This document shows, one piece after another, positions 8,588 to 21,592 of a stretch of DNA of 32,000 bases. The notes under the pieces are model-generated. The model ran no database searches and was not told the origin of the DNA. It worked only from the letters and a program-made list of their open reading frames with translations. The stretch comes from Parasynechococcus marenigrum WH 8102 (GTDB taxonomy: Bacteria; Cyanobacteriota; Cyanobacteriia; PCC-6307; Cyanobiaceae). Position 1 is the stretch's first letter, and the number at the start of each line of letters is the position of its first letter. The translations under genes were made by a program, and so were the position numbers. Location: contig NC_005070.1 in assembly GCF_000195975.1 (NCBI RefSeq), forward strand, positions 180,001 to 212,000, given 5' to 3'.

Positions 8588-10011
8588 GACGAACGGCTCA
8601 GCTCTGGACCTTGTTGGCTGCGCTGGTGGCGGCGGCCTTCGCTCTGCGGACCCTGGTGTTGATCGATGCCACCGCCCTGTGGAGCGATGAGCTCTACAGC
8701 GTGGGTAAAAGCTTTCAGCCAAGCCCGCTGGAGCTGCTCGGCATGCTGCGGCAGGACACCCATCCACCCTTGTATTACGGCCTGCTTTGGTTCTGGGGGC
8801 AGCTCGTAGGGCAAAGCCCCGTCAGTCTGCGGTTGCTCTCCTGGCTGGCCTATCTGGGAGGGGGCGCCGTGATGGTGGCCCAGGCGGTGGCCCTCAGTGA
8901 TGGTCGGCAGCGGGTGCTGCCCTTGGCGCTGCTCCTGGCGTTCTGCAGTCCCTACCCCGTGCGCTTCGCCATCGAAGGGAAAAGCTATGCGCTGCTGGTG
9001 CTGCTGGTGGCCCTGGCTTGGTGGTGGCGTCGTGCCGAACGATCTGTGGCCTACGGAGTGGTGGCGGCGTTGGCGGGTCTCACCCATTTCTACGGTCTCT
9101 TTCTCATGCTGGCCGCAGCCGCCTGGGATGGGGCAAGCCGGCGCTGGCATCTGGCGGGAGCTGCCGTGCTGGGGGCCATCCCAGCTCTGGGATGGATCAT
9201 CTATTCCGCGGATTACCTGTTCAGTTCCCGCTCCGGCAGTTGGATCGGTCAACCGGACTTCGCCCTGCTGGAGGAGTCCCTGGCTCGGGCTCTGGGGCTC
9301 TGGCCCCTGCCCAAGCTGCTGTTGCTGGTGGTGCTCATCGGGGGGCTGCAGCGTTGGGGCGGGATGCAACCGCTGCCCTGGCGACGGAACCGTTTGCTGG
9401 ACCGCAGTGCGCTGTTGCCCTCCGCCGTGATGGTGCTGGCTGTGGTGCTGGTCTCCTTTGTAAAGCCGCTGGCCTTCAGTCGCTACTTCGTGGTGCTGTT
9501 GCCGTCGGTGCTGCCGTTGCTGTGCGTGTTGCTCACCGCCTCACCACTCCATCACTGGGGGCAACGGGTGGTGCTTGGGGTGGTGCTGGTGCTGCTGATC
9601 AGTTGGTGGGGGCCAGGTTTTTCGGAGTTGGATCCCACCGCCGGTGGGGTGCGTGAACAGGACCAGTTCCGTGCGATCAGCCAGCGCACCAACGGGCAGA
9701 GGGAGCGTTACAGCCCCCGAGCCCGCCTGTTCAACCTCAGTGATCAGATGGAGTTGTCCATGGGACGCATCACCGCTCCTGAGCTCTCCTGGGGCGATCG
9801 CGATGAACTGCGGGAACGGCTGTTGCGTTCACCGCTACCGGACGAGCTGTGGCTGGCCAGCAGCGGGCCGCCGCAGAAGTTGAATCGCAAGCTCAAGCCC
9901 CTGCAGCAGCAGGCTGAAGCCGCTGGATATGTCTGTGCCGACCGTTCTGGAGGCCTCAGCCATGGTCGGCTGTTGCGTTGCCGATTGGGATCCAGGGGCC
10001 CTCTGCTGTGA
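8584..10011 (+). CDS. polytopic GT-C membrane glycosyltransferase (GT39/GT83, ArnT/PMT_2-like)
   Basis: ATGA overlap with the upstream gene (8584-8587). Many hydrophobic segments. First-loop signature LWSDELYSVGKSF...DTHPPLYYGLLWFWG is typical of ArnT/PMT-like enzymes. Soluble C-terminal tail of about 130 aa. Confidence 0.7.
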   Translation: MRRTAQLWTLLAALVAAAFALRTLVLIDATALWSDELYSVGKSFQPSPLELLGMLRQDTHPPLYYGLLWFWGQLVGQSPVSLRLLSWLAYLGGGAVMVAQAVALSDGRQRVLPLALLLAFCSPYPVRFAIEGKSYALLVLLVALAWWWRRAERSVAYGVVAALAGLTHFYGLFLMLAAAAWDGASRRWHLAGAAVLGAIPALGWIIYSADYLFSSRSGSWIGQPDFALLEESLARALGLWPLPKLLLLVVLIGGLQRWGGMQPLPWRRNRLLDRSALLPSAVMVLAVVLVSFVKPLAFSRYFVVLLPSVLPLLCVLLTASPLHHWGQRVVLGVVLVLLISWWGPGFSELDPTAGGVREQDQFRAISQRTNGQRERYSPRARLFNLSDQMELSMGRITAPELSWGDRDELRERLLRSPLPDELWLASSGPPQKLNRKLKPLQQQAEAAGYVCADRSGGLSHGRLLRCRLGSRGPLL

Positions 10012-11980
10012 GGGTCTGCGCTGTGGTTTCTGTACAGGCCAGTAGCAAGGGACCGCAGGTCTGGGGATCCACCAGCAGCTCAAGCAGTGCCTGCGAGGGT
10101 GAGTCATCCAGTTGGATGAGCCCATCCAGCCATTGCCAGCTGCGGCGGTTGGCCGGCGCCAGGCTGCTGGCATAGCCCTGAGCCAATCGATCCATGGCTT
10201 CGGGGTATGCCGGAATGCGGTTGGTCCAAAGGGTGATCCGTAGGGGGGAGCTGCTCGCCAGCATTTCCCCGAGATGCCCGAGCAGACCGAAGCCGGTGAC
10301 ATCGGTGCAGGCGTGTATTGCCTGGCGATGGGGCTCCAGTTGATCCAGCAATCGGTGCTGACTGCGGGACATGTGCTGGAGCACGGTGTCCAAGGCCTCG
10401 GGTTGGCAGGCACCCGCCATGGCAGCAGCGAACAACACGCCGGTGCCCAGGGGACGGCTTAACAGCAGCACATCACCGTGGGCGATTCCCCCCTTGCTCC
10501 AGGGGGCAGCGCTGCGACCGTTGACGCAGAGGCTCAGCTGCACCCCCAGGCTGGGGCAGTGCGGCGGTTCACTGCGGGATTCCAGGGTGTGGCCTCCGAT
10601 CAGCTGCGCCTGCTGTTCCTCCAGCACTGATCGCACACCGCACAGCGTCTGCACCAGTAATTCCTGCTGTTCCGCCGCCTCCAGCACCGGCAGAGTCACG
10701 ATTGCCTGGGCGCTGTCGACCCTGACACCGCAGGCCCAGAGATCGGAGCAAGCATGGAGGGTGGTGAGTCGACCGTTCAGCCAGGGGTCGCTGACCAGCG
10801 CCGGGAACCCATCCACGCTCTGCAGCAGCGGCGGATCGCCCTCGATGCGTGCCGCATCTTCTGGTGCCCCGGTGAGCCCGGCCTGCTCCAGGGCGGCTGC
10901 AAGGGGCTGGGCCGGCAGCTTGGCTGCGCATCCCCGGCAGGCCATCGGTTCTGATGCAGTCATCGGCTCGCTGCTGCGGAACCCCGCCATGAAGCGTCTG
11001 TCGATCCGTCGCTTCCACTGCCAGAGCCATCCGGAGGGTCCCAGCTGCCAGCGTCCCCAGCGTGCCCAGGCCCGGCCTTGCTGATCGCCGATCAGCTGAA
11101 GCGCCTGTCGTTGCGGCCGCCAGGGACGCAGCGGGCGATCCAGGCAGCTGGCTTCCAGGTTCCATGCCAAGGGGATGGCTGCTCGCACAGCCCAGACGCC
11201 GGAGGCTGGCCTGGGTGCTGCAGCCATGACGGCGCAGTCACCGCTCGCAAAAATGTGCTCGTTGCCCTCCACCTGCAGCTGGGCATTGGTGCGGAGGCGA
11301 CCATCGCCATCCACCGGCAGACCGCTGGCTGCCAGCCAGATGGGTGCGCGACTGCCGGTGCAAAGCAGCCAGGGGCCACCCGTGGGCTCGGGGGTCGTGA
11401 CTAGGTCGATCAAGGCCTCCAACAGGATGCGCCGCTCAAGGGGACCTGGACCGTTTGAGCGGGTTTGCAGGCGCAACGGGCGGTGAGGCCAGCGGCGTCG
11501 CAGCGCCAGCACCACTTCCATGGCTGCGGCGCCAGCCCCGACCACGGTGAAGGGATTTGTGCTGTTGGGATCCTCGGAGGCGATGAAGGCCAGGGCCGGC
11601 TCCAGTGGCTTGATCGCGATGCCTTCAGCGCTTGGCCTGCTGATGGCACCGACATCGAGGCTGATCAGACCAAAACGCAAGGGTGGGCGTTCTGCGAGCA
11701 ACAGGCAGCGCTGGCCGGGGTCCAGGCCGGTGATCTCCGCCTGCACGAAGCCGACACCAGCTCGATCGCAGAGGGAGCGCAGATTGATGGCGGCTGCCTC
11801 AGGTGGGTCGATCCCGGCGATCAGGGCTGGAACCATGCCCGAGTAGAGCGCTGAACTGCAGCGATTGATCAGCAGTACAGGGCGGGCCGGCCGTCGGGTT
11901 GGGTCCATGGCCCAGCGCTTGAGGATCAGCGCGTGGCTGTGGCCTCCGCCGGCCAGAAGGAGCGGCCCGGCTGGATTCAT
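9956..11980 (-). CDS. selD: fusion protein: FAD/NAD(P)-dependent pyridine-nucleotide-disulfide oxidoreductase (NDH-2-like) fused to selenide,water dikinase (selenophosphate synthetase, Cys type)
   Basis: Preferred start is ATG 11980 (MNPAGPLLLAGGGHSHAL, Rossmann GxGxxH right at the N-terminus), which forms an ATGA overlap with the galE stop. The ORF track extends to 12037. Second dinucleotide motif FTVVGAGAAAME and ASGDCA. C-terminal half has SelD motifs CRGCAAKLP, DDAARIEG, TDVTGFGLLGHL. Confidence 0.85.
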   Translation of the reverse strand: MNPAGPLLLAGGGHSHALILKRWAMDPTRRPARPVLLINRCSSALYSGMVPALIAGIDPPEAAAINLRSLCDRAGVGFVQAEITGLDPGQRCLLLAERPPLRFGLISLDVGAISRPSAEGIAIKPLEPALAFIASEDPNSTNPFTVVGAGAAAMEVVLALRRRWPHRPLRLQTRSNGPGPLERRILLEALIDLVTTPEPTGGPWLLCTGSRAPIWLAASGLPVDGDGRLRTNAQLQVEGNEHIFASGDCAVMAAAPRPASGVWAVRAAIPLAWNLEASCLDRPLRPWRPQRQALQLIGDQQGRAWARWGRWQLGPSGWLWQWKRRIDRRFMAGFRSSEPMTASEPMACRGCAAKLPAQPLAAALEQAGLTGAPEDAARIEGDPPLLQSVDGFPALVSDPWLNGRLTTLHACSDLWACGVRVDSAQAIVTLPVLEAAEQQELLVQTLCGVRSVLEEQQAQLIGGHTLESRSEPPHCPSLGVQLSLCVNGRSAAPWSKGGIAHGDVLLLSRPLGTGVLFAAAMAGACQPEALDTVLQHMSRSQHRLLDQLEPHRQAIHACTDVTGFGLLGHLGEMLASSSPLRITLWTNRIPAYPEAMDRLAQGYASSLAPANRRSWQWLDGLIQLDDSPSQALLELLVDPQTCGPLLLACTETTAQTLTAEGPWIPIGNATADHG

Positions 11981-13011
11981 GGCGCTGATCGATAGCCCAT
12001 CGGGTTGGCCTGCTGCCAGGCCCAGCCATCGCGGCACATCTCCACCAGGCCGCGGCGGGCTGTCCAGCCCAACACGGCTTCCGCCTGGCGCGGACAGGCC
12101 TGCAGCCTCGGCACATCACCGGGACGGCGGGCAACCACCTCATAGGGAATGGTGATGCCGGTGGCCTGCTCGAACCCCTTGATCACATCGAGCACGCTCA
12201 GTCCCGTGCCCGTGCCGATGTTCACGGTCAGCTGGGTGGGCGGCTCCTGGTTGAGCAGGTGGGTGAGCGTGACGCCATGGGCTTCGGCTAGATCCATCAC
12301 ATGCAGATAGTCGCGGATGCCGGTGCCATCGGGTGTCGGGTAGTCCTGCCCGAACACCCGCAGCTTGTCCCTGCGTCCTGCAGCTACCTGGGTGATGAAG
12401 GGGAACAGGTTGTTGGGAATGCCAAGGGGGTCTTCCCCGATGCGGCCGCTGGGGTGGGCACCCACCGGGTTGAAGTAGCGCAGGCAGGCCACCCGCCAGC
12501 TGCCGGAGCGACAAAGCGCTCCCAGCATCTGCTCGACGGCCAGTTTGGTTTGGGCGTAGGGATGCACCGGCGCGGTGGCCATGCCCTCATGCAGGGGGAA
12601 CTGCTCCGGTTCGCCATACACCGTGGAGGTGCTGCTGAATACAAGGGTGCGGCAACCGTGGCGTTCCATGACCGCCGCCAGCACTCGGCTGCCGTTGAGG
12701 TTCACATCCCAGTAGCGCAGAGGGTCGGCCACTGATTCACCCACCGCTTTGAGCCCGGCGAAGTGAATCACGCCATCCACCGGCCTGCCCGAGCGGAAGG
12801 CTCGATCCAGCACATCAGGGTTGCGCAAATCCCCTTCCACCAGCTGAAGGGCATCGGACGCCGCCAGCTCCTGAACCCGGCGCAGGGCTTCCGGACTGCT
12901 GTTGTCGAAGTTGTCCACCACCACCAGGGAGTGGCCCTGCTCCAGCAGCACAAGGCAGGTGTGGCTGCCGATGAAACCAGCCCCTCCGGTGATCAGGATC
13001 CTGCACGTCAT
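11977..13011 (-). CDS. galE: UDP-glucose 4-epimerase
   Basis: ILITGGAGFIGSHTCLVLLEQGHSLVVVDNFDNSS, the SSTSTVYG/YAQTKL catalytic S...YxxxK, RYFNPVGAH and DYPTPDGTGIRDYLHVMDLA. Confidence 0.9.
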   Translation of the reverse strand: MTCRILITGGAGFIGSHTCLVLLEQGHSLVVVDNFDNSSPEALRRVQELAASDALQLVEGDLRNPDVLDRAFRSGRPVDGVIHFAGLKAVGESVADPLRYWDVNLNGSRVLAAVMERHGCRTLVFSSTSTVYGEPEQFPLHEGMATAPVHPYAQTKLAVEQMLGALCRSGSWRVACLRYFNPVGAHPSGRIGEDPLGIPNNLFPFITQVAAGRRDKLRVFGQDYPTPDGTGIRDYLHVMDLAEAHGVTLTHLLNQEPPTQLTVNIGTGTGLSVLDVIKGFEQATGITIPYEVVARRPGDVPRLQACPRQAEAVLGWTARRGLVEMCRDGWAWQQANPMGYRSAP

Positions 13012-13101
13012 GGGGCGTGAGCAGCGCGTTGATTGATTGTGGATCAGGTCAGAGCGAGAGCAGGTGTTTGCACCTAGGGTTCGCCCACTGATTGGTGACG
13101 T

Positions 13102-13857
13102 GTGGACGGCGGAACGACGCTCCCCGAGCTAAGGCGAGCTATTGGAGCTGACGGTAGATCTCTTTTACGGCGCTACAACCTCCTCCAGCCGTTGGTGGAG
13201 CAGATGATCACCAGCGAAGCCATTTCTGGCATGTCGGTTCCTGAAGAAGCTCTCAACAGAGCCAAGCTCGAGCTCCTCGAGCAACGGGGCTTCGAAACAA
13301 TGGATCAGTGGCCCGAGATGCTCGCGGCTTTGGGTCGATCCAACGATGAGGTGATGGATCGGCTCGAACGGGTGATCCGTCGCCAGGGATACATTAGAGA
13401 GCAATTTGCTCCCAAGGCTGAAGCTCGTTTCCTCGAGCGCAAGAACGAGCTCGATCAAGTGGTGTACAGCCTGCTGCGGTTGTCCAACAATTTCCTGGCC
13501 CGTGAGTTGTATCTGCAAATCGAGTCTGGGGAATCCAACTTTGCGGACCTTGCCAAGCGCTATGCGGAGGGTCCTGAACGCAACACCAACGGCATCGTTG
13601 GGCCGGTCTCTTTGACCCAGGCCCATCCAGTCCTGGTTGAAAAGCTCCGAGTTGCGCAACCCGGGGTGCTGTTGGAGCCATTTCGCATTGCCGATTGGTG
13701 GCTGGTGGTGCGACTGGAGCGCTATTCCCCGGCCACATTCACGCCGGAGATCTCCGATCAAATGTGCCGGGAGATGTTCGATGCATGGATCGCCGAGGAA
13801 ACAGCCAGTACCTTGAGCCGGCTTGAAGCCGAATACAGCGACTTCAGCGTTTCCTGA
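13102..13857 (+). CDS. SurA-N/parvulin-like (PpiC-type rotamase fold) protein, no signal peptide, probably non-catalytic
   Basis: GTG start 13102 (start uncertain). C-terminal half shows the parvulin pattern NFADLAKRYAEGPERNTNGIVGPVS...PGVLLEPFRIADWWLVVRLE. Stop overlaps the ABC start (TGATG 13855-13859). Confidence 0.6.
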   Translation: MDGGTTLPELRRAIGADGRSLLRRYNLLQPLVEQMITSEAISGMSVPEEALNRAKLELLEQRGFETMDQWPEMLAALGRSNDEVMDRLERVIRRQGYIREQFAPKAEARFLERKNELDQVVYSLLRLSNNFLARELYLQIESGESNFADLAKRYAEGPERNTNGIVGPVSLTQAHPVLVEKLRVAQPGVLLEPFRIADWWLVVRLERYSPATFTPEISDQMCREMFDAWIAEETASTLSRLEAEYSDFSVS

Positions 13858-16775
13858 TGACCCAGTCCCCTCCCTTCCCCCTGCTGAAGCACCCTGCTTT
13901 CAAGGGCGTATCTGATGCTGCTTTGTTGCGGCTGCAGGACTCTTCGAGCCTGCTGCGGTTCGAACTGGGTCAGCAGCTGTGTGAGCCGGATGACATCCCG
14001 GCCAGGATCCTGGTTCTGCTCCAAGGTCAGGCACGTCTGGTGGGGCGTCACAACGGTCGCCTCACCACCGTTGGCAAGTTCGGCCCGGGCAGCTTGATCG
14101 GTGCCGCAAGCCTCCTGTGCGGTAGCCCGTGCGAAAACGTGATTGCATCGGATGAAGTGATCGCCTGTGCGATCTCCGATGAGCAGTGGACTCAGCTGTA
14201 CAGCGAGGAAGAATCCTTCCGCCAGTGGTGTGATCAGCAGTTGTGGCCCCAGGAGCTCCTCGCGCTGCTGGAGGTCCTTGAGGAGGGAACAGCGGAAACC
14301 GACAGCTCAGCTCTCGAGAAACTGGAGCAGGCTCTGAAGAGCGTCAAGCGTTGTCTGCCAGACGCGGAGGCGATTGACGCAGCTCTAGCGACGGGAGGTC
14401 GTCTTTATCTCACAAGTTGCTGGGGACACGCCTCCTTAGGGCAGTCGATCCAAGCGGTGTCTGACATTCCGGATTCGGATCGGTTCCGTCAACGCCTGGT
14501 GTTGTTTCCCGGTTTATCAGCGGACAGCGCTGAGAAGGAGCCGGGCGGCGATCTCGTGCCAGCGAATGCTGTGAAGAAGGCTGAACTGCTGCCTCCAGTC
14601 AGTCGTTACAGCCCTGAGCGCAATGTGGTGGACAGCCTGAGGCTGATCCGTGCTGAAGGCCCGATCCAGGAAACGCTGGCCTGCTTCCAGATGCTGGCCC
14701 AATTGATGAAGCTGCCGTTTCGGCGCGATTCAATTGAGAAAGTGCTGCAGGACAACCTGCGGCGTGGGCTGACGCCCAATCTTCAGCTCTGCGGCCAATT
14801 GGCGGCCAGCTTGGGTCTGCACGTCATGGCAGCCAAGGTGCCTTCCGTATCAGGCACCCGCCTCCAGGTTCCATCGATGCTTCCCTGGAAACAGGGTTTT
14901 GCTCTGGTGGTGGCCAGCAGCGAACAGGGCCTGAGGCTCGCTTCGCCGAAACACGGCATGGTCACGGTTGCTCCCGATCAATTAGCTGAAAGTTTCCCTG
15001 AGGGGATCGAGCTGCTTCTGATGGAGCGCTCCAATGCCACCCCTGATCAGAAGTTCGGTCCTGGCTGGTTCTGGCCTGCGCTCAAGCGCTACCGCGGGGT
15101 GCTGATTCAGGTGTTGGCCGCCAGTTTTGTGGTGCAGCTGTTCACCCTGGCCAACCCCCTGCTGATCCAGGTGATCATCGACAAGGTGATCAGCCAACGC
15201 AGTCTGGACACGTTGCAAGTGCTGGGCATTGCCCTGGTGATGGTGACCATCCTGGAAGGGGTGCTGGGCAGCCTAAAAACGTTCCTCTTCGCCGAAACCA
15301 CCAACCGCATTGATCAGCGCCTCGGTGCCGAAGTGATCGATCACCTGCTGCGTCTTCCCCTTGGCTATTTCGATCGCCGCCCGGTGGGTGAGCTCGGCAC
15401 CCGGGTGGCTGAGCTGGAAAAGATCCGCAACTTCCTCACGGGTCAGGCGCTCACCACGATCCTGGATGCCGCCTTCTCGGTGATCTACATCATGGTGATG
15501 GTGATCTACAGCTGGTTGCTGACCTTGATCGCCCTATCTGTGTTGCCGATTCAGATCGGTCTCACCGTGCTGGGAGCTCCGCTGTTCCGCCGGCAGTTCC
15601 GTGCTGCTGCTGAAGAAAATGCCAAAACCCAGAGCCATCTGGTTGAGGTTCTCACTGGTATTCAGACCGTTAAGGCTCAGAACGTGGAAATGGTCAGCCG
15701 TTGGCGCTGGCAAGAGTTCTACTCGCAATACATCGCTCGCACGTTTGAGAAGACGATTACCGGTACGGCTCTGAATCAAACCAGCCAGGTTCTGCAGAAG
15801 ATTTCGCAGCTGATGGTGCTGTGGATCGGAGCCTCGATGGTGTTGAGCGGTGACCTCACCCTGGGCCAGTTGATCGCCTTCCGGATCATTTCTGGCTACG
15901 TGACTCAGCCACTGCTGCGGTTGTCGACGATCTGGCAGAACATCCAGGAACTACGGGTGAGTTTCGAGCGTCTTGCTGACGTGATCGACACCCCGGAGGA
16001 ATCCGATGAGGTGGATAAGTCAAAGGTGATGTTGCCGCCGTTGCACGGGGAGGTGCGGTTCGAGGGTCTTTCCTTCCGGTTCCGACCTGGTCAACCTGAG
16101 GTGTTGAAGGACATCAACCTCGAGATCAAGGCCGGCACGTTCGTTGGAATCGTTGGCCAGAGCGGCAGTGGCAAGAGCACCCTGATGAAGCTCCTGCCGC
16201 GTCTTTATGAGCCGGGAGAAGGCAGGATTTTGATCGATGGCTACGACATCGCCAAGGTTGAGCTTTATTCACTGCGCCGACAGATTGGAATCGTTCCCCA
16301 GGACCCACTCCTGTTCAGCGGAACGGTGAGCGAGAACATTGCTCTCACCAATCCGGAAGCGTCCAGTGAGGAGATTGTTCGGGCAGCCCGCCTGGCCAAT
16401 GCCCACGACTTCATCATGGATCTGCCCAGTGGCTACAGCACTCCTGTGGGTGAACGGGGGGCTTCCCTCAGTGGCGGCCAACGTCAACGGGTGGCGATCG
16501 CGCGGACCTTGCTGAGCAATCCCAAGTTGCTGGTGATGGACGAAGCCACGAGCGCCCTTGATTACGAAACGGAGAGAAAGGTCTGCGACAACCTGCTCGA
16601 GAATCTGGATGACCAGACGGTGTTTTTCATTACGCACCGCCTGTCCACGATCCGTCAGGCCGATGTGATCGTGATGCTTCACCAAGGTGCCGTGGTCGAA
16701 GTCGGCACCCATGAGGACCTGATGAAGCATCGAGGTCGCTACTACGCCCTTTATCGCCAGCAGGAGAGCACCTGA
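13857..16775 (+). CDS. type I secretion ABC exporter (HlyB-like): cNMP-binding-like domain, unassigned linker, C39-like domain, 6-TM domain, NBD
   Basis: 972 aa. Walker A GQSGSGKST (about 16153-16179), Q-loop IVPQDPLLF, signature LSGGQRQR, Walker B LLVMDEATSALD, H-loop FITHRLS. ABC membrane domain runs from about residue 405 to 690. Confidence 0.9.
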   Translation: MTQSPPFPLLKHPAFKGVSDAALLRLQDSSSLLRFELGQQLCEPDDIPARILVLLQGQARLVGRHNGRLTTVGKFGPGSLIGAASLLCGSPCENVIASDEVIACAISDEQWTQLYSEEESFRQWCDQQLWPQELLALLEVLEEGTAETDSSALEKLEQALKSVKRCLPDAEAIDAALATGGRLYLTSCWGHASLGQSIQAVSDIPDSDRFRQRLVLFPGLSADSAEKEPGGDLVPANAVKKAELLPPVSRYSPERNVVDSLRLIRAEGPIQETLACFQMLAQLMKLPFRRDSIEKVLQDNLRRGLTPNLQLCGQLAASLGLHVMAAKVPSVSGTRLQVPSMLPWKQGFALVVASSEQGLRLASPKHGMVTVAPDQLAESFPEGIELLLMERSNATPDQKFGPGWFWPALKRYRGVLIQVLAASFVVQLFTLANPLLIQVIIDKVISQRSLDTLQVLGIALVMVTILEGVLGSLKTFLFAETTNRIDQRLGAEVIDHLLRLPLGYFDRRPVGELGTRVAELEKIRNFLTGQALTTILDAAFSVIYIMVMVIYSWLLTLIALSVLPIQIGLTVLGAPLFRRQFRAAAEENAKTQSHLVEVLTGIQTVKAQNVEMVSRWRWQEFYSQYIARTFEKTITGTALNQTSQVLQKISQLMVLWIGASMVLSGDLTLGQLIAFRIISGYVTQPLLRLSTIWQNIQELRVSFERLADVIDTPEESDEVDKSKVMLPPLHGEVRFEGLSFRFRPGQPEVLKDINLEIKAGTFVGIVGQSGSGKSTLMKLLPRLYEPGEGRILIDGYDIAKVELYSLRRQIGIVPQDPLLFSGTVSENIALTNPEASSEEIVRAARLANAHDFIMDLPSGYSTPVGERGASLSGGQRQRVAIARTLLSNPKLLVMDEATSALDYETERKVCDNLLENLDDQTVFFITHRLSTIRQADVIVMLHQGAVVEVGTHEDLMKHRGRYYALYRQQEST
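13896..14192 (+). other. cNMP-binding-like (CAP family) domain of the ABC exporter, non-canonical phosphate-binding cassette
   Basis: FKGVSDAALLRL..RFELGQQLCEPDDIPARILVLLQGQARLV...GPGSLIGAASLLCGSPCENVIAS..VIACAIS. Confidence 0.6.
14640..15032 (+). other. peptidase-C39-like domain (CLD) lacking the Cys/His/Asp catalytic residues
   Basis: IQETLACFQMLAQLMKLPF..LCGQLAASLGL..VPSMLPWKQGFALVVAS..LRLASPKHG aligned by eye to the C39 consensus. Confidence 0.6.
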
Positions 16776-16777
16776 CC

Positions 16778-17968
16778 ATGAAGCTCAATCCATTCCAGCG
16801 TCAGACGTCTCCTACGAACCAGGACAGCTCAGACCTCGTCAACTACGACGAATCGGTGCTGCAGCAGGGTCGGTTCTGGATGAAGACCGTCACCTGGACG
16901 ATGATCGGCACGACAGTATTTGGCGTGGCTTGGCTTGCCTTGGCTCGCACCGAGGAGATAGTCGTCGCCCCAGGTCAGCTTGAGCCTGTCGGTTCTGTGC
17001 AGGACATCCAGATGCCCGTGGGTGGTGTGGCGGACCAGATCCTGGTACAGGAAGGCGATGCCGTGAAGGCAGGGCAGGTGTTGATGAAATTGGACACCGA
17101 AGCCAGCGAAGAACAGCGCCTCAGCCTGGAGAAAACGATCAAGCTCAAACAGGAGCAGCTCCGGCTTAAGGCCGAGGAAAAGCAGCGCTATCTCCAGGTG
17201 AATAACGAGGAGGTGCAAATGCTTGAGAACAACCTCGCACTTCAAAGTGAGATTCTTGAGCGTTTTGAGGAATTGGAGGAGGCCGGTGCCACCTCCGAGC
17301 TGCAATATCTCAGCCAGCAGAACTCTGTTGAGGAAACCCGCGGTCGTCTGATGCAGACCAAGGCGGATCGTTTACGGCAGTTGGCGCTTCTCGATCAGCA
17401 GGTGGCACAGTTCAACACAGAAGTGGCCGACCTGCGCGGCCGCCTGGCTCAAGCAAGGGTCACCCTGCGCTACCAACAGCTGAAGTCTCCGGTGGATGGT
17501 GTGGTTTTCGATCTCAAGCCAACAGCCACGGGCTTCACCGCCCAGTCCACCCAGACGGTCATGAAGGTTGTTCCCTACGGCTCGCTGGAAGCGAAAGTGG
17601 AAGTACCGAGCAACAAGATCGGCTTCGTGACGGTTCCTCCCGGATGCCCCAAGGATCTGGAGAGTTGCATGAAAGCGGATATCAGCATCGATTCCTATCC
17701 ATCAACGGATTTTGGGGTTCTGGAGGGAAAGGTGACGCGCATCGGATCTGATGCTCTGCCACCCGATCCCCAGGAGCAGCGTCAGGAGCTCAGTTTCCCT
17801 GTCACTGTGAAGCTCGATCAGCAGAAGCTGCAGCTGAAAAGCGGTACAACGCTGCCACTGCAAGTCGGCATGAGCCTGACGGCCAACATCAAGTTGCGCA
17901 AGGTTTCTTACCTGCAACTGCTGCTGGGTGAGTTCCAGGACAAAGCCGAGTCGCTTCAGCGCCTCTGA
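16778..17968 (+). CDS. HlyD-family periplasmic adaptor (membrane fusion protein) of the type I secretion system
   Basis: N-terminal TM (TVTWTMIGTTVFGVAWLALA), lipoyl-like half-motifs (GVADQILVQEGDAVKAGQVLMKLD ... SPVDGVVFDL), long coiled-coil region, C-terminal beta-barrel. Starts 2 nt after the ABC stop. Confidence 0.9.
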   Translation: MKLNPFQRQTSPTNQDSSDLVNYDESVLQQGRFWMKTVTWTMIGTTVFGVAWLALARTEEIVVAPGQLEPVGSVQDIQMPVGGVADQILVQEGDAVKAGQVLMKLDTEASEEQRLSLEKTIKLKQEQLRLKAEEKQRYLQVNNEEVQMLENNLALQSEILERFEELEEAGATSELQYLSQQNSVEETRGRLMQTKADRLRQLALLDQQVAQFNTEVADLRGRLAQARVTLRYQQLKSPVDGVVFDLKPTATGFTAQSTQTVMKVVPYGSLEAKVEVPSNKIGFVTVPPGCPKDLESCMKADISIDSYPSTDFGVLEGKVTRIGSDALPPDPQEQRQELSFPVTVKLDQQKLQLKSGTTLPLQVGMSLTANIKLRKVSYLQLLLGEFQDKAESLQRL

Positions 17969-17973
17969 GCCAG

Positions 17974-19224
17974 ATGCGAATCCTGTTTGTTCATCAGAAC
18001 TTCCCGGGTCAATACGTTCACATCGTTCAGAGACTCGCTCAACAGGGCCAGCACCAGATCGTGGCCCTCGGCATCAATGCCTTGGATGCCAACCGACCTT
18101 TACCGGAAGAGTTGCAGTACTTCCGCTACCCCCTGGAACGGGGCAACACCAAGGGGATTCATCCTTTGGTGATGGAAACAGAAACGAAGATCATCAGGGC
18201 TGAGGGCTGTGCACGGGCGGCGGAACAACTGAAAGCCAAAGGATTCACGCCTGATCTCATCTGTGCTCATCCAGGCTGGGGTGAAGCCCTTTTCCTCAAA
18301 GCGATTTGGCCGGACTCACCGCTGCTTTGTTACGAGGAGTTTTTTTATCGAGCTCACGGGTTTGATTCCAATTTCGATCCCGAATTCGACCGGGATTGGT
18401 CCTGGCAGGAGCAGGCCCGCCTCAATATGAAAAATGCTTACTTGCATCTCACCCTGGAACAGGCGGACTGGCATGTGTCGCCCACCCATTTTCAGGCCAG
18501 CAGCTTTCCGGAGCATTGGCAGCGCCGCATCAGCGTGATCCATGACGGTGTCGACACCAGGCGCGCAGCACCGGTGGCCAATCCAAGGCCGCTGACTCTC
18601 CCGGATGGAACCGTTCTGGAGAAAGGTCAGTCGATCATCACCTTTGTGAATCGGAGTCTGGAGCCCTACCGGGGCTGCCATACCTTCCTGCGGGCGATCC
18701 CCGATCTTCAGCGCCAGTCACCGGATGCACGCATTGTGATCGTCGGTGAAACCAAGGGTGTCAGTTATGGGTCCCCCTGTCCCGACGGTGAGTGGAAGGA
18801 TCAATTCCTGGCTGAGATCGAGGGGCACTACGACCCGAGCGGGGTGCATTTTGCAGGGACACTGCCTTACGAGCAGTTCCTGCTGTTGCTGCAGTTGAGC
18901 GCCTGCCATGTGTATCTCACCTATCCGTTCGTCTTGAGCTGGAGCTTGCTTGAGGCGATGGCCTGTGGTTGTGCCGTTGTGGGTTCCGACACGGCTCCAG
19001 TTCGGGAGGTGATCCGCCACGGCATCAATGGTCTGCTGGTGGATTTCTTCTCTCCGGCCGATCTGGCATCAGCGGTGTCCGAGCTGTTGCGGGATCGCGA
19101 CCGGGCAGCATCTTTCGGAGCAGAGGCAAGACGCACGGTGGAACGCAGCTATGACCTTGACGTTTGTGTTCAACGTCAGCTGGCCCTGATCGATTTGGTG
19201 GCCAGCGGCAGTATTAACGCTTGA
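17974..19224 (+). CDS. GT4-family (GT-B, group 1) glycosyltransferase
   Basis: MRILFVHQNFPGQY N-terminus and the C-terminal GT4 pattern SWSLLEAMACGCAVVGSDTAPVREVIRHGINGLLVDF (E-x7-E type). Starts 5 nt after the HlyD stop. Confidence 0.8.
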   Translation: MRILFVHQNFPGQYVHIVQRLAQQGQHQIVALGINALDANRPLPEELQYFRYPLERGNTKGIHPLVMETETKIIRAEGCARAAEQLKAKGFTPDLICAHPGWGEALFLKAIWPDSPLLCYEEFFYRAHGFDSNFDPEFDRDWSWQEQARLNMKNAYLHLTLEQADWHVSPTHFQASSFPEHWQRRISVIHDGVDTRRAAPVANPRPLTLPDGTVLEKGQSIITFVNRSLEPYRGCHTFLRAIPDLQRQSPDARIVIVGETKGVSYGSPCPDGEWKDQFLAEIEGHYDPSGVHFAGTLPYEQFLLLLQLSACHVYLTYPFVLSWSLLEAMACGCAVVGSDTAPVREVIRHGINGLLVDFFSPADLASAVSELLRDRDRAASFGAEARRTVERSYDLDVCVQRQLALIDLVASGSINA

Positions 19225-19342
19225 ACGAAGTGGGGATAGAACTGTTTGAGAAGTTGGTTGTCGTCGAGACATTGATTTGAAATCTGGGCGACATCGCTTT
19301 GGCTTTGTCCTATCCAGAATTAACAAAGTCTGAAGAAAAATC

Positions 19343-21592
19343 GTGACTGCATCCTTTCGGCATGGTGTCGCCTCGGGTGATCCCTATCAGGATTCCTTTG
19401 TGATCTGGTCACGCGTGTCTGATGTGGATGGCTCGTCTGCATCTGTGAACTGGGAAGTCTCTTCAAGTCCGAAATTTAAAAAACGTACAATTTTGGATTC
19501 GGGAACGATTTCCACAAGTTCGGATCGAGATTGGACTGTCAAGGCACTTCCCGAGGGATTGCAGGCTGGTGAAGACTATTACTACCGCTTCGAAGTGGAT
19601 GGGGTGGTATCTCCTGTAGGTCACGCCAGTACGTTGCCTGATAAGGCTGCTTCAGTCCGTATGGCAGTTTTGTCATGCGCTAATTTTACAAATACGGAAT
19701 TTTTTGAGACCTATCGAAGAGTCGCGGAAATCGATGCTGAGCAGCCCTACGATATTATTTTACATGTTGGCGACTATATTTATGAATATGGTCAAGGCGG
19801 TTATCCGAGCGCAGAGTCTGCTGTTGAAAACCGTGGCTTTGAGCCCGATAGCGAGTTGCTGAGTCTTGACGATTATAGACAGCGTTATGCGCAGTACCAC
19901 AGTGATGCTGGTTTACGTGAAATGCATGCATCTGCTCCAATGGTCTCGATCTGGGACGACCACGAAACTGCTAATGACAGTTGGTTAGGAGGTGCTGAAA
20001 ATCACCAGTCTGAAGTCGAGGGTGATTGGGCCTCTCGTCGTGATGCTGCTCTGCAGGCTTACTACGAGTGGATGCCGATTCGAGAGCCTGCTTTGCGTCG
20101 GGATGTTGATTTGGGGACGGATGATTCGCCTCTGACTCAGGGTTTTCGCAGTTTTGACCTGGCTGATCTTGTTACTCTTTATGTACTTGAGACTAGGCTT
20201 ACGGCAAGGGATGAGCAGCTTGCTTATCCAAATTCTGACGCTGTCGCCGCTCGAATTGGGGACATACTCGCGGATCCACTGCTATTAGCTTCCTACGCCG
20301 AGTCTCTGGGTGTTGCTCCCCCCGTTTCAGCGGAGGACCTTGATGGCGTCAACGCTTTATCTGCAGCCTTGATCGATCCAGTGACCCTGGAGTTGGTTGC
20401 GGCGACTGTTGCCGATGGGTGGACGAATCCATCTCGAAATCTCCTTGGTCAAGACCAGCAGTCCTGGCTCCAGAGTGGCTTGGCCGGGTCTGATGCTGCT
20501 TGGCAGGTGCTTGGTCAGCAGGTCTTAATGCAGTCAATGGCTATACCAGCTGAGCTGCTGCTGAATGCCACGGATCCAGATGTTCTGGCGAAGTATTCGG
20601 CCCCCCTTGAAAAGTTGGCGACTGGACAGCCCCTGAATCAAGACGAGTTGGCTTTGTTTGATGAAGCTACTAAGATTCCATACAACCTTGATGCTTGGGA
20701 TGGCTACGGCGTTGAGAGAGAAACCATTCTTCAAACGGCAGCCGGTCTCGGTAAAAAGTTAGTTTCCCTTGCTGGTGATACACACAACGCATGGGTAGGT
20801 GTGCTGGACGCGATGAGTACAGGTGCGGCTATGCCTGGCCAAGTGGTCGGCATTGAATTTGCCACTCCAGGAGTTTCTGCTCCAGGAATAGAAACATACA
20901 TTGCCCCAGGTCTCGAGCCAATATTTTTAAGTTACACAGAAGGTTTAAAATATACAGACTTAAGTCGGAGGGGTTTCCTTGATATTACCTTTCACGAAGA
21001 ACACATCACTTCTAGCTATCAGCTTCTAGACCCTGACGAGGGTTGGATCGCCGATGTTTTGCAGTCAGATGATTCCTTCAGCCCACGCCAACTATCCCGG
21101 GTTGATGCCACGACAACTGCAGATATCCCAACCGGATTTGCCCACGGAAGGTTCAGAGAAGTCATCCGGGCTGGTGCTGGCAATGACCGCATCGCAGCTG
21201 GAGATCGCAAAGGTTATGTCTCCGCTGGAGGTGGTAACGATGACATCGACGGTGGCCGTCGCGCACAACTGCTCCTCGGTGATGAGGGTGATGATGTGAT
21301 TCGTGGTCGTGGTGGCCCTGACGAGCTCAGGGGTGGTCCCGGCGCAGACAGCCTGAATGGTGGTCCTGGTGATGATTTGATTCTTGGGGGCGCTGGTGCG
21401 GACAGTTTCCGCATCAGCAAAGGAGACGACCGCATCGTCGACCTTGATCCTCTTGAAGGAGACGTTCTGCTCTTGCCTGCAGGCCTCGAGCCAACGTTGA
21501 CTTCGGCTGTTTCTGGCGTCCTTCTCGCGACTGATCGTGGCACCACCCTGTTGGAGGGACTCACCCTGGAGCAGGTGGAGGGGCTGATCTGA
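19343..21592 (+). CDS. phoD: PhoD-family alkaline phosphatase/phosphodiesterase with C-terminal RTX repeats, no N-terminal signal peptide
   Basis: GTG 19343 is the only start after the in-frame stop at 19331-19333. FRHGVASGDP..VIWSRV (PhoD_N), VLSCANF, LHVGDYIYEYG, IWDDHETANDSW and LAGDTHNAWV (PhoD metallophosphatase motifs). RTX block at the C-terminus. Confidence 0.85.
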   Translation: MTASFRHGVASGDPYQDSFVIWSRVSDVDGSSASVNWEVSSSPKFKKRTILDSGTISTSSDRDWTVKALPEGLQAGEDYYYRFEVDGVVSPVGHASTLPDKAASVRMAVLSCANFTNTEFFETYRRVAEIDAEQPYDIILHVGDYIYEYGQGGYPSAESAVENRGFEPDSELLSLDDYRQRYAQYHSDAGLREMHASAPMVSIWDDHETANDSWLGGAENHQSEVEGDWASRRDAALQAYYEWMPIREPALRRDVDLGTDDSPLTQGFRSFDLADLVTLYVLETRLTARDEQLAYPNSDAVAARIGDILADPLLLASYAESLGVAPPVSAEDLDGVNALSAALIDPVTLELVAATVADGWTNPSRNLLGQDQQSWLQSGLAGSDAAWQVLGQQVLMQSMAIPAELLLNATDPDVLAKYSAPLEKLATGQPLNQDELALFDEATKIPYNLDAWDGYGVERETILQTAAGLGKKLVSLAGDTHNAWVGVLDAMSTGAAMPGQVVGIEFATPGVSAPGIETYIAPGLEPIFLSYTEGLKYTDLSRRGFLDITFHEEHITSSYQLLDPDEGWIADVLQSDDSFSPRQLSRVDATTTADIPTGFAHGRFREVIRAGAGNDRIAAGDRKGYVSAGGGNDDIDGGRRAQLLLGDEGDDVIRGRGGPDELRGGPGADSLNGGPGDDLILGGAGADSFRISKGDDRIVDLDPLEGDVLLLPAGLEPTLTSAVSGVLLATDRGTTLLEGLTLEQVEGLI
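21170..21412 (+). repeat. nine in-register RTX nonapeptide (GGxGxDxUx) Ca-binding repeats inside the phoD-like CDS
   Basis: AGAGNDRIA AGDRKGYVS AGGGNDDID GGRRAQLLL GDEGDDVIR GRGGPDELR GGPGADSLN GGPGDDLIL GGAGADSFR, followed by a non-repeat tail of about 59 aa. Confidence 0.85.

Follow-up and report, generated by a model that had tools for sequence, protein, structure and literature searches.

An HlyB-type exporter of Parasynechococcus marenigrum WH 8102 with a predicted protease-dead C39-like domain and a conserved cyclic nucleotide-binding-like domain that may gate secretion

HetC of Nostoc sp. PCC 7120 consists of a cyclic nucleoside monophosphate-like (cNMP-like) domain, a spacer, an active C39 peptidase domain (Cys347/His420), a transmembrane domain (TMD) and a nucleotide-binding domain (NBD), and deletion of its cNMP region abolishes function in vivo (PMC10986499). 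HetC's N-terminal domain is not stabilised by cAMP or 2-oxoglutarate (2-OG), but it is stabilised by GDP, GTP and especially ppGpp, the latter being bound with a Kd of 59 uM (PMC10986499). In Synechocystis PCC 6803 the HlyB/HlyD analogues Sll1180/Sll1181 are reported to export the RTX S-layer protein Sll1951 via the TolC homologue Slr1270 (Agarwal et al. 2018, cited in PMC11594277). Here we describe an ATP-binding cassette (ABC) exporter encoded in a stretch of 32,000 nucleotides from Parasynechococcus marenigrum WH 8102 (NC_005070.1, positions 180,001 to 212,000 of the forward strand). This whole stretch is called the window below, and coordinates refer to it unless another locus is named. 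The protein joins a domain of cyclic nucleotide-binding (CNB) type and a C39-like domain (CLD) to a TMD and an NBD. We consider it fairly probable that it is an HlyB-type pump in which a dead CLD docks RTX cargo, while the CNB module has been retargeted to a non-cyclic ligand that gates secretion.

The exporter and its C39-like domain

The exporter gene and its modules (aa, amino acid residues of the product) are located as follows, the stretch 13896-15032 treated in an earlier sequence-only reading of this DNA being aa 14-392 of the 972-aa exporter.

13857-16775, + strand: open reading frame of the ABC exporter, 972 aa, with the modules CNB-like, alpha/beta insert, C39-like (CLD), TMD and NBD
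13878-14285, + strand: CNB-like domain, aa 8-143, a beta-roll with C-terminal helices 108-143 (PF00027, PDB profile matches, AlphaFold2 (AF2) and Foldseek)
14088-14150, + strand: degenerate phosphate-binding cassette, aa 78-98, GSLIGAASLLCGSPCENVIAS (phmmer and hhalign alignments, column counts)
14304-14510, + strand: family-specific alpha/beta subdomain, aa 150-218 (AF2, predicted local confidence (pLDDT) 80-94)
14514-14621, + strand: disordered tether, aa 220-255 (pLDDT <50; length and sequence vary in the alignment)
14622-15032, + strand: CLD, aa 256-392 (PCAT1 profile match, TIGR01846 from aa 274, column counts)
15111-15914, + strand: TMD, aa 419-686 (PF00664, ABC_membrane, 184 bits)
16104-16775, + strand: NBD (PF00005, ABC_tran, 120 bits; Pfam span aa 750-899)

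The protein is an ABC half-transporter for type I secretion, belongs to the HlyB subfamily and has kept its ATPase motifs intact. It passes the NCBIfam model TIGR01846 (type I secretion system permease/ATPase, HlyB) with 731.6 bits at a cut-off of 725.55, exporter aa 274-970 being matched to model positions 2-693, whereas the NCBIfam models for bacteriocin exporters and peptidase-containing ABC transporters (PCAT) remain far under their cut-offs (TIGR01193, 410.9 vs 523.85; TIGR03796, 453.5 vs 853.3). The TMD aligns with that of HlyB at E=7e-56 when the family profile is compared with the PDB. All NBD motifs can be read in the translation, namely Walker A (GQSGSGKST), the signature (LSGGQRQR), Walker B (LLVMDEATSALD) and the H-loop (ITHRLST), and they are intact, as had been claimed before. 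The sequence-only reading had also taken the protein for an exporter of RTX/HlyB type rather than of bacteriocin type, and this is supported by the TIGR01846 match, the missing catalytic residues, the adjacent HlyD gene and the RTX phosphatase encoded downstream. Close orthologues are annotated as 'type I secretion system ABC transporter, HlyB family', and since they carry this public label, the assignment itself is not new. A database label that does need correction is 'peptidase domain-containing ABC transporter', as this protein cannot be a peptidase.

The Pfam model of the peptidase, PF03412 (Peptidase_C39), has no match in the exporter at E<=1. The C39 assignment thus rests on the coverage by TIGR01846 and on the match of the family profile to PCAT1. 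This profile, which spans aa 256-402 and was built from 13 diverse homologues, matches the isolated PCAT1 C39 domain (7N87) over its full length at E=1.5e-4. In the resulting alignment the oxyanion Gln15 corresponds to Ala266, the catalytic Cys21 to Glu272 and the Asp to Ser363. A second PDB-profile alignment sets AHFVVI/ADP against QGFALV/ASP, hence the His is replaced by Gly347. In papain-like enzymes the nucleophile is located at the N-terminus of a helix and the His at the start of a strand; in the AF2 model, helix 269-284 has Glu272 at its N-terminus and strand 347-355 opens with Gly347. Helices and strands follow each other in the modelled CLD in a papain-like order. The CLD has the C39 fold, but Ala266, Glu272, Gly347 and Ser363 stand where the oxyanion Gln and the catalytic Cys, His and Asp would be.

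The same holds beyond WH8102. Among 53 picocyanobacterial homologues the three catalytic columns never hold Cys, His or Asp, respectively (position 272 is never Cys, 347 is Gly or Ser and 363 is always Ser), and these residues are likewise missing in the CLD of further cluster representatives and of filamentous cyanobacteria. An earlier reading by eye of QET before LAC, of QGFALVV and of LASP had suggested a C39-like domain without its catalytic triad, and both profile alignments lead to the same residues: neither places Cys, His or Asp at the canonical columns, although PF03412 itself contributed no match to this check. Cys276 was considered as an alternative nucleophile and was rejected, because in the PCAT1 alignment it pairs with the second Cys of DCGxxC, which has no catalytic role. 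A Foldseek search with the 410-aa AF2 model returned only CNB matches, so that the C39 fold is without independent confirmation from a fold search, and an hhalign comparison of the CLD profile with the CLD of HlyB was not significant (E=0.028), the HlyB query sequence having been verified at 100% identity.

The CNB-like domain and the alpha/beta insert

Residues from about 8 to 143 form a genuine CNB fold without the Glu/Arg phosphate clamp. At 36.8 bits (E=3.9e-9), PF00027 (cNMP_binding) exceeds its gathering score of 27.5 over aa 34-117, the CNB family profile matches PDB chains of PKG, PKA-R and CRP with E-values down to 3e-10, and phmmer with aa 1-414 against the PDB yields solely CNB domains. 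In the AF2 model of 410 aa (mean pLDDT 79.8) the beta-roll and the helices are visible, with pLDDT of 85-94 across most of the domain. All 50 PDB matches listed by Foldseek for this model are CNB-domain proteins (probability 1.0, E~3e-9), CRP, PKA-R and channel CNBs among them. The CAP/CNB beta-roll noticed earlier at aa ~14-112 is therefore confirmed as a fold by all these approaches.

In a functional cassette the Glu contacts the ribose 2'-OH and the Arg contacts the cyclic phosphate. The cassette of the exporter, which had been read correctly as GSLIGAASLLCGSPCENVIAS, pairs without gaps with FGEIALLMNRPRAATVVA of PKA RI-alpha in the phmmer alignment, and this puts Ala83 at the position of the Glu and Cys92 at that of the Arg. 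The hhalign comparison of the CNB profile with CRP is weak and served for register alone; it has Ala83 at the Glu position as well, but Pro91 at the Arg position, with a two-residue gap between Pro91 and Cys92 opposite Glu81-Arg82 of CRP, and with Cys92 paired with Ser83. There is no Arg or Lys within aa 83-99 of the exporter, and the phosphate clamp is thus absent in every register. As to the sequence-only reading, its claim that the clamp is lost, with Ala83 at the Glu position, is upheld, and neither alignment shows Glu or Arg at the canonical positions. Its placement of Glu93 at the Arg position has to be given up, as the residue there is Cys92 or Pro91 and the register was off by one or two residues.

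The best single-sequence match in the PDB is to Euglena gracilis PKA-R, in its second CNB domain (PDB 6RSX, residues 167-276), which owes this rank to a Cys at its own cassette Arg position (NQPCVATV). A metal site of the form Cys88-x3-Cys92 was also considered for the exporter and was rejected, since Cys88 occurs in only 13 of the 53 homologues.

The sequence-only reading had spoken of a pseudo-domain. The conservation of this region speaks against that label. When HMMER was run exhaustively with the CNB profile, it gave 137 cluster representatives at E<=1e-30, and conservation was counted over 141 family domains (representatives clustered at 50% identity). Three residues, G38, G57 and R60, are present in 100% of them, followed by G82 (99%), E133 (98%), A97 (95%) and C92 (91%); where Cys92 is absent, it is replaced by L/I/S/F/Y/M. 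Glu93 was a selection criterion of this set, and its 100% there is by construction, but it is also invariant in homologue sets that were not selected in this way (the 53 picocyanobacterial sequences and the filamentous cyanobacteria). Over the 141 representatives, information content is highest at aa 53-61 and 81-93. Column 83 holds A/L/M in the 53 picocyanobacterial homologues, where Cys92 and Glu93 are both invariant, while in the wider family the column of the cassette Glu holds A/L/I/V/W. Relatives in Trichodesmium, Limnospira, Nostocaceae and Allocoleopsis retain Arg60, the Cys-Glu pair and Glu133. A search with the Trichodesmium homologue, aimed at HetC-like proteins, gave CLD-type relatives only. 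Arg60 lies on strand beta5 and is absent at that position from canonical CNB domains.

From these alignments the CNB/CLD exporter family is old and cyanobacteria-wide, reaching from picocyanobacteria to Trichodesmium, and its CNB pocket (Arg60; Gly82-x-Ala-Ser...Cys92-Glu93) is the most conserved part of the N-terminus. That the conservation maximum coincides with the cassette and the beta5 Arg argues against a decayed pseudo-domain and for a retargeted receptor. We regard the following points as new: the family signature, a CNB pocket that has been kept instead of decaying, the alpha/beta subdomain without a match that is described below and the universal parvulin-like partner.

The same CNB variant, with a Trp-...-Cys-Glu cassette, is also found in a protein of 1137 aa (locus L054, 5123-8536), where it is joined, along with the first C39-like helix, to a STAND NTPase and a histidine kinase. 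This gene stands among EAD10-domain genes. The sensor module has been reused outside ABC exporters.

Residues 120-260 had been described as an unassigned linker of 140 aa. It is true that this region has no known relative, as neither Pfam nor the PDB gave a match by sequence, nor the PDB by fold. However, it is not a linker, because most of it is folded in the AF2 model and disorder is confined to aa 220-255. Two AF2 runs agree on the structure of aa 120-260. Helices 108-143 belong to the C-terminus of the CNB domain, and they are followed by a compact alpha/beta unit with helices 152-162 and 170-178 and strands 164-166, 182-185 and 214-217. Foldseek with a model of the insert found no relative of the aa 150-218 unit in the PDB (best E 1.3). 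Arg213 is invariant in the family alignment, Trichodesmium included.

The operon and its candidate cargo

The neighbourhood of the exporter gene was surveyed in 52 genomic loci with exporter homologues. Fifty of these carry the labels Synechococcus, Cyanobium, Parasynechococcus or unclassified cyanobacteria, and the other two are contigs of metagenome-assembled genomes (MAG; L027 and L028) with proteobacterial labels. In the window, the relevant neighbours are:

13102-13857, + strand: cytoplasmic parvulin (PpiC)-like protein, 251 aa, no signal peptide (PF00639, 30.9 bits)
16778-17968, + strand: HlyD-family membrane fusion protein (PF13437; TIGR01843 148 bits vs a cut-off of 208.65)
17974-19224, + strand: GT4 glycosyltransferase (Glyco_trans_4_3 and Glycos_transf_1; Pfam 191 bits)
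19343-21592, + strand: PhoD-like phosphatase with C-terminal RTX repeats (PhoD_N from aa 7; HemolysinCabind 56 bits)

The start codon of the exporter gene overlaps the stop codon of the parvulin-like gene (ATGA), and the two are translationally coupled. The parvulin-like gene stands directly upstream of the exporter in all 50 of the 52 loci whose sequence extends that far, paralogues included. In Trichodesmium, a rotamase-like gene of 251 aa (locus L053, 8690-9445) is located upstream of the exporter, from which it is separated by about 550 bp without a called gene, and a GT4 gene is nearby. Orthologues of the parvulin-like protein are annotated as peptidyl-prolyl isomerase (PPIase) or 'PpiC-type PPIase', and the protein weakly matches TIGR04500, a 'peptide maturation system' protein (32 bits vs a cut-off of 180). 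It is likely an unrecognised type I secretion system (T1SS) accessory component. The HlyD gene is present in every surveyed locus that reaches far enough downstream, again with paralogues included. The GT4 gene is kept downstream in marine loci, and in most marine strains hisS comes directly after it; its product is a probable modifier of secreted substrates.

Three genes downstream of the exporter, the PhoD-RTX protein ends in nine RTX nonapeptides and a C-terminal tail. Its PhoD_N domain begins at residue 7, which leaves no room for an N-terminal Tat or Sec signal. Judged from this layout, the phosphatase is a candidate T1SS cargo. The gene has a GC content of 0.50-0.52, compared with 0.65 in its flanks, and it is inserted between GT4 and hisS only in this lineage. 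As a strain-specific low-GC insertion, it was rejected as a general substrate of the system.

Some further observations concern this gene and the operon. The Tat signal usual for PhoD is swapped here for C-terminal RTX repeats. A Cyanobium MAG has a copy of PhoD-RTX with 58% identity at a distance of about 4 kb from its exporter gene (L037, 14415-16136, opposite strand). In the 118-bp spacer in front of the WH8102 gene (19225-19342) there are motifs of TTAAC type (attaacgc, aattaacaaa), which may be Pho-box-like. The T1SS operon (window 13001-19000) has a GC content of 0.56-0.60 vs 0.65-0.67 in the flanking core genes, yet it is syntenic in many strains. A second, paralogous trio of PPIase-like, CNB-CLD-ABC and HlyD genes with 35-38% identity exists in the same genomes (L047, 9156-19482); it is preceded by a GT2 gene and followed by genes for a 934-aa protein without a Pfam match and for a TPR-sulfotransferase protein. 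Cargo-modifying enzymes seem to travel with CNB-CLD exporter systems. In Synechococcus sp. M16CYN, the PPIase/ABC/HlyD trio is carried by the 17-kb circular plasmid pM16CYN01 (AP029049.1, 206-5028), together with xerC and high-light-inducible protein genes. Apart from the operon, the minus strand of the window encodes at 9956-12037 a 693-aa open reading frame in which an N-terminal region resembling pyridine-nucleotide-disulphide oxidoreductases is fused to AIR-synthase-related (SelD-like) domains.

The window genes from the parvulin-like gene to PhoD-RTX are presumably SYNW0192-0196, with the exporter as SYNW0193. Proteins sharing 90%-identity clusters with those of the window come from WH8103, RS9915, BOUM118, A18-40 and A18-46.1, which are strains of clade III, and their annotations include 'HlyD family' and 'hemolysin-type calcium-binding repeat family protein'. 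McCarren and Brahamsha (2005 and 2009) reportedly found that insertions in SYNW0192-0195 abolish swimming and disturb the localisation of SwmA/SwmB. SwmA is a glycosylated RTX S-layer protein (PMC3034196), and SYNW0196 has been listed as a putative alkaline phosphatase (PMC3865332). By the numbering offset from SwmA, SYNW0196 is NP_896291.1. This protein was detected in the WH8102 exoproteome, from which NP_896291.1, SwmA and SwmB almost vanish in the dark (PMC4949707).

Gating of secretion, its alternatives and the known systems

The reading that we favour can be put as a sequence of steps. The dead CLD would dock unfolded RTX substrates, as it does in HlyB, and these would then be threaded C-terminus first through an ABC/HlyD/TolC channel. 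Candidate cargoes are the nearby PhoD-RTX phosphatase and glycosylated RTX surface proteins encoded elsewhere in the genome, such as SwmA. The parvulin-like protein may act on the cargo in the cytoplasm, and GT4 may glycosylate it. The CNB module would serve as a receptor for a non-cyclic ligand, either (p)ppGpp or other guanine nucleotides, by comparison with HetC, or a nucleoside, by comparison with PKA-R of trypanosomes. Binding of the ligand would reposition the CLD via the long C-helix, the alpha/beta insert and the flexible tether, and this could switch substrate loading or ATPase activity on or off. It is plausible, and in line with the HetC precedent, that the CNB module senses a signal other than cAMP/cGMP and gates secretion. 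The top Foldseek match of the AF2 model is the PKA regulatory subunit of Trypanosoma brucei/cruzi (PDB 6FLO, 6HYI, 6HYQ), which according to the titles of the PDB entries is cAMP-independent and binds inosine or guanosine. A CNB domain with a substituted cassette can thus be a receptor for another ligand.

Several points weigh against this picture. The inter-domain confidence of the AF2 model is low (predicted template modelling score, pTM, 0.53), which makes the coupling path a conjecture, and the resemblance of the CLD to that of HlyB lacks significance (E=0.028 as given above), so that substrate docking 'as in HlyB' is said by analogy. Arg60 and Glu93 are assigned to the pocket from their secondary-structure position only, and an interface between proteins, for instance towards the parvulin-like partner, would account for the conserved pocket equally well. 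The affinity of HetC for ppGpp is weak, and HetC is set beside the exporter by description. The 32-kb window contains no TolC homologue, and the PhoD-RTX gene is absent beside the operon in most other strains.

It is possible, although we put it forward tentatively, that the system works as a ligand-gated T1SS, in which the retargeted pocket binds an alarmone or nucleotide such as (p)ppGpp, a nucleoside or a nucleotide-sugar and opens or shuts the export of RTX surface proteins and phosphatases, with the parvulin-like protein holding or handing over the cargo. Cyanobacterial ppGpp rises in the dark. If true, such gating could explain why the release of SwmA, SwmB and alkaline phosphatases almost stops in the dark in WH8102 (PMC4949707). 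An alternative that we find doubtful to a similar degree is that the CNB-like module binds no small molecule at all and has a structural or protein-interaction role, such as dimerisation or the docking of either the substrate or the parvulin-like partner. This idea would fit the loss of the clamp residues, the precedent of CLDs as a dead fold reused in protein binding (PMC10986499, discussion), and the translational coupling of the parvulin-like gene to the exporter gene, with which it is inherited in every locus; on the other hand, conservation is focused on the ligand cassette and beta5 instead of being spread across the surface, and the related domain of HetC binds nucleotides in vitro.

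That the module still binds cAMP/cGMP in a non-canonical manner, with the invariant Arg60 standing in for the cassette Arg, is very unlikely. R60 is found in 141/141 representatives at a position where canonical CNB domains lack it, and in PKG an Arg on beta5 contacts the base. However, no Glu is available for the ribose 2'-OH, the invariant and acidic Glu93 lies in the phosphate site, and HetC's N-terminal domain was not stabilised by cAMP. We can give hardly any credence to the idea that the protein is a peptide/bacteriocin exporter (PCAT) which cuts double-glycine leaders with a non-canonical nucleophile, for instance Cys276. This Cys is invariant, the CLD is nearer in sequence to the C39 domain of PCAT1 than to the CLD of HlyB, the upstream gene is weakly similar to TIGR04500, and active relatives, HetC and PteB, exist in cyanobacteria. 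Yet Cys276 is the non-catalytic second Cys of DCGxxC, the His, the Asp and the oxyanion Gln are all missing, and the bacteriocin/PCAT models fail their cut-offs while the HlyB model passes; the TIGR04500 similarity, too, amounts to 32 bits vs 180.

Type I secretion is usually seen as substrate-driven and as controlled only via gene expression. With a conserved sensor-like domain as part of the pump, secretion would be under post-translational control, and such control would cover S-layer/motility proteins as well as phosphate-scavenging enzymes in very abundant ocean phototrophs. The signature Arg60, Cys92-Glu93 and Arg213 offers concrete targets for point mutants, with SwmA, SwmB and SYNW0196 as possible read-outs.

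Among the known systems, HlyB of E. coli (PDB 3ZUA, 7SGR, 8DCK) is similar in that a C39-fold domain lacking the catalytic Cys stands at the N-terminal side of the TMD, and in that HlyD is encoded next to the pump, with a candidate substrate of RTX type close by in the present case. HlyB begins with the CLD, whereas the exporter described here has about 255 extra residues, which make up the CNB-like domain, the alpha/beta insert and the tether. HlyB also keeps His83, while the exporter family has Gly or Ser there and has lost the Gln and the Asp as well, and the operon here, unlike the HlyB system, includes a parvulin-like gene and a glycosyltransferase. Sll1180/Sll1181 do the same job as we propose for the present exporter; Sll1180 is a putative orthologue that may have the CNB-like domain. 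PKA-R of trypanosomes resembles the exporter in its CNB fold, in the substituted cassette Arg and in that nucleosides are bound instead of cAMP, but it regulates a kinase in eukaryotes, has two CNB domains, keeps the cassette Glu and carries other substitutions; the two are alike in fold and in principle, without being of one family. PteB (Synpcc7942_1133) of Synechococcus elongatus, a cyanobacterial C39 ABC exporter whose organisation is described as HetC-like, is an active PCAT for double-glycine proteins (PMC4997328), whereas the exporter here is of the CLD type. HetC, by its published description, has the module order in common with the exporter, with a long spacer after the cNMP-like domain and a TMD of six helices between C39 fold and NBD. 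It is proteolytically active through Cys347 and His420, where the exporter has Glu272 and Gly347, and it has no nearby gene for a membrane fusion protein and a presumed signalling peptide as its cargo, while the exporter has an adjacent HlyD and RTX proteins as its proposed cargo. For the N-terminal module HetC is the nearest precedent, and the exporter family is its counterpart of RTX type, protease-dead and coupled to HlyD.

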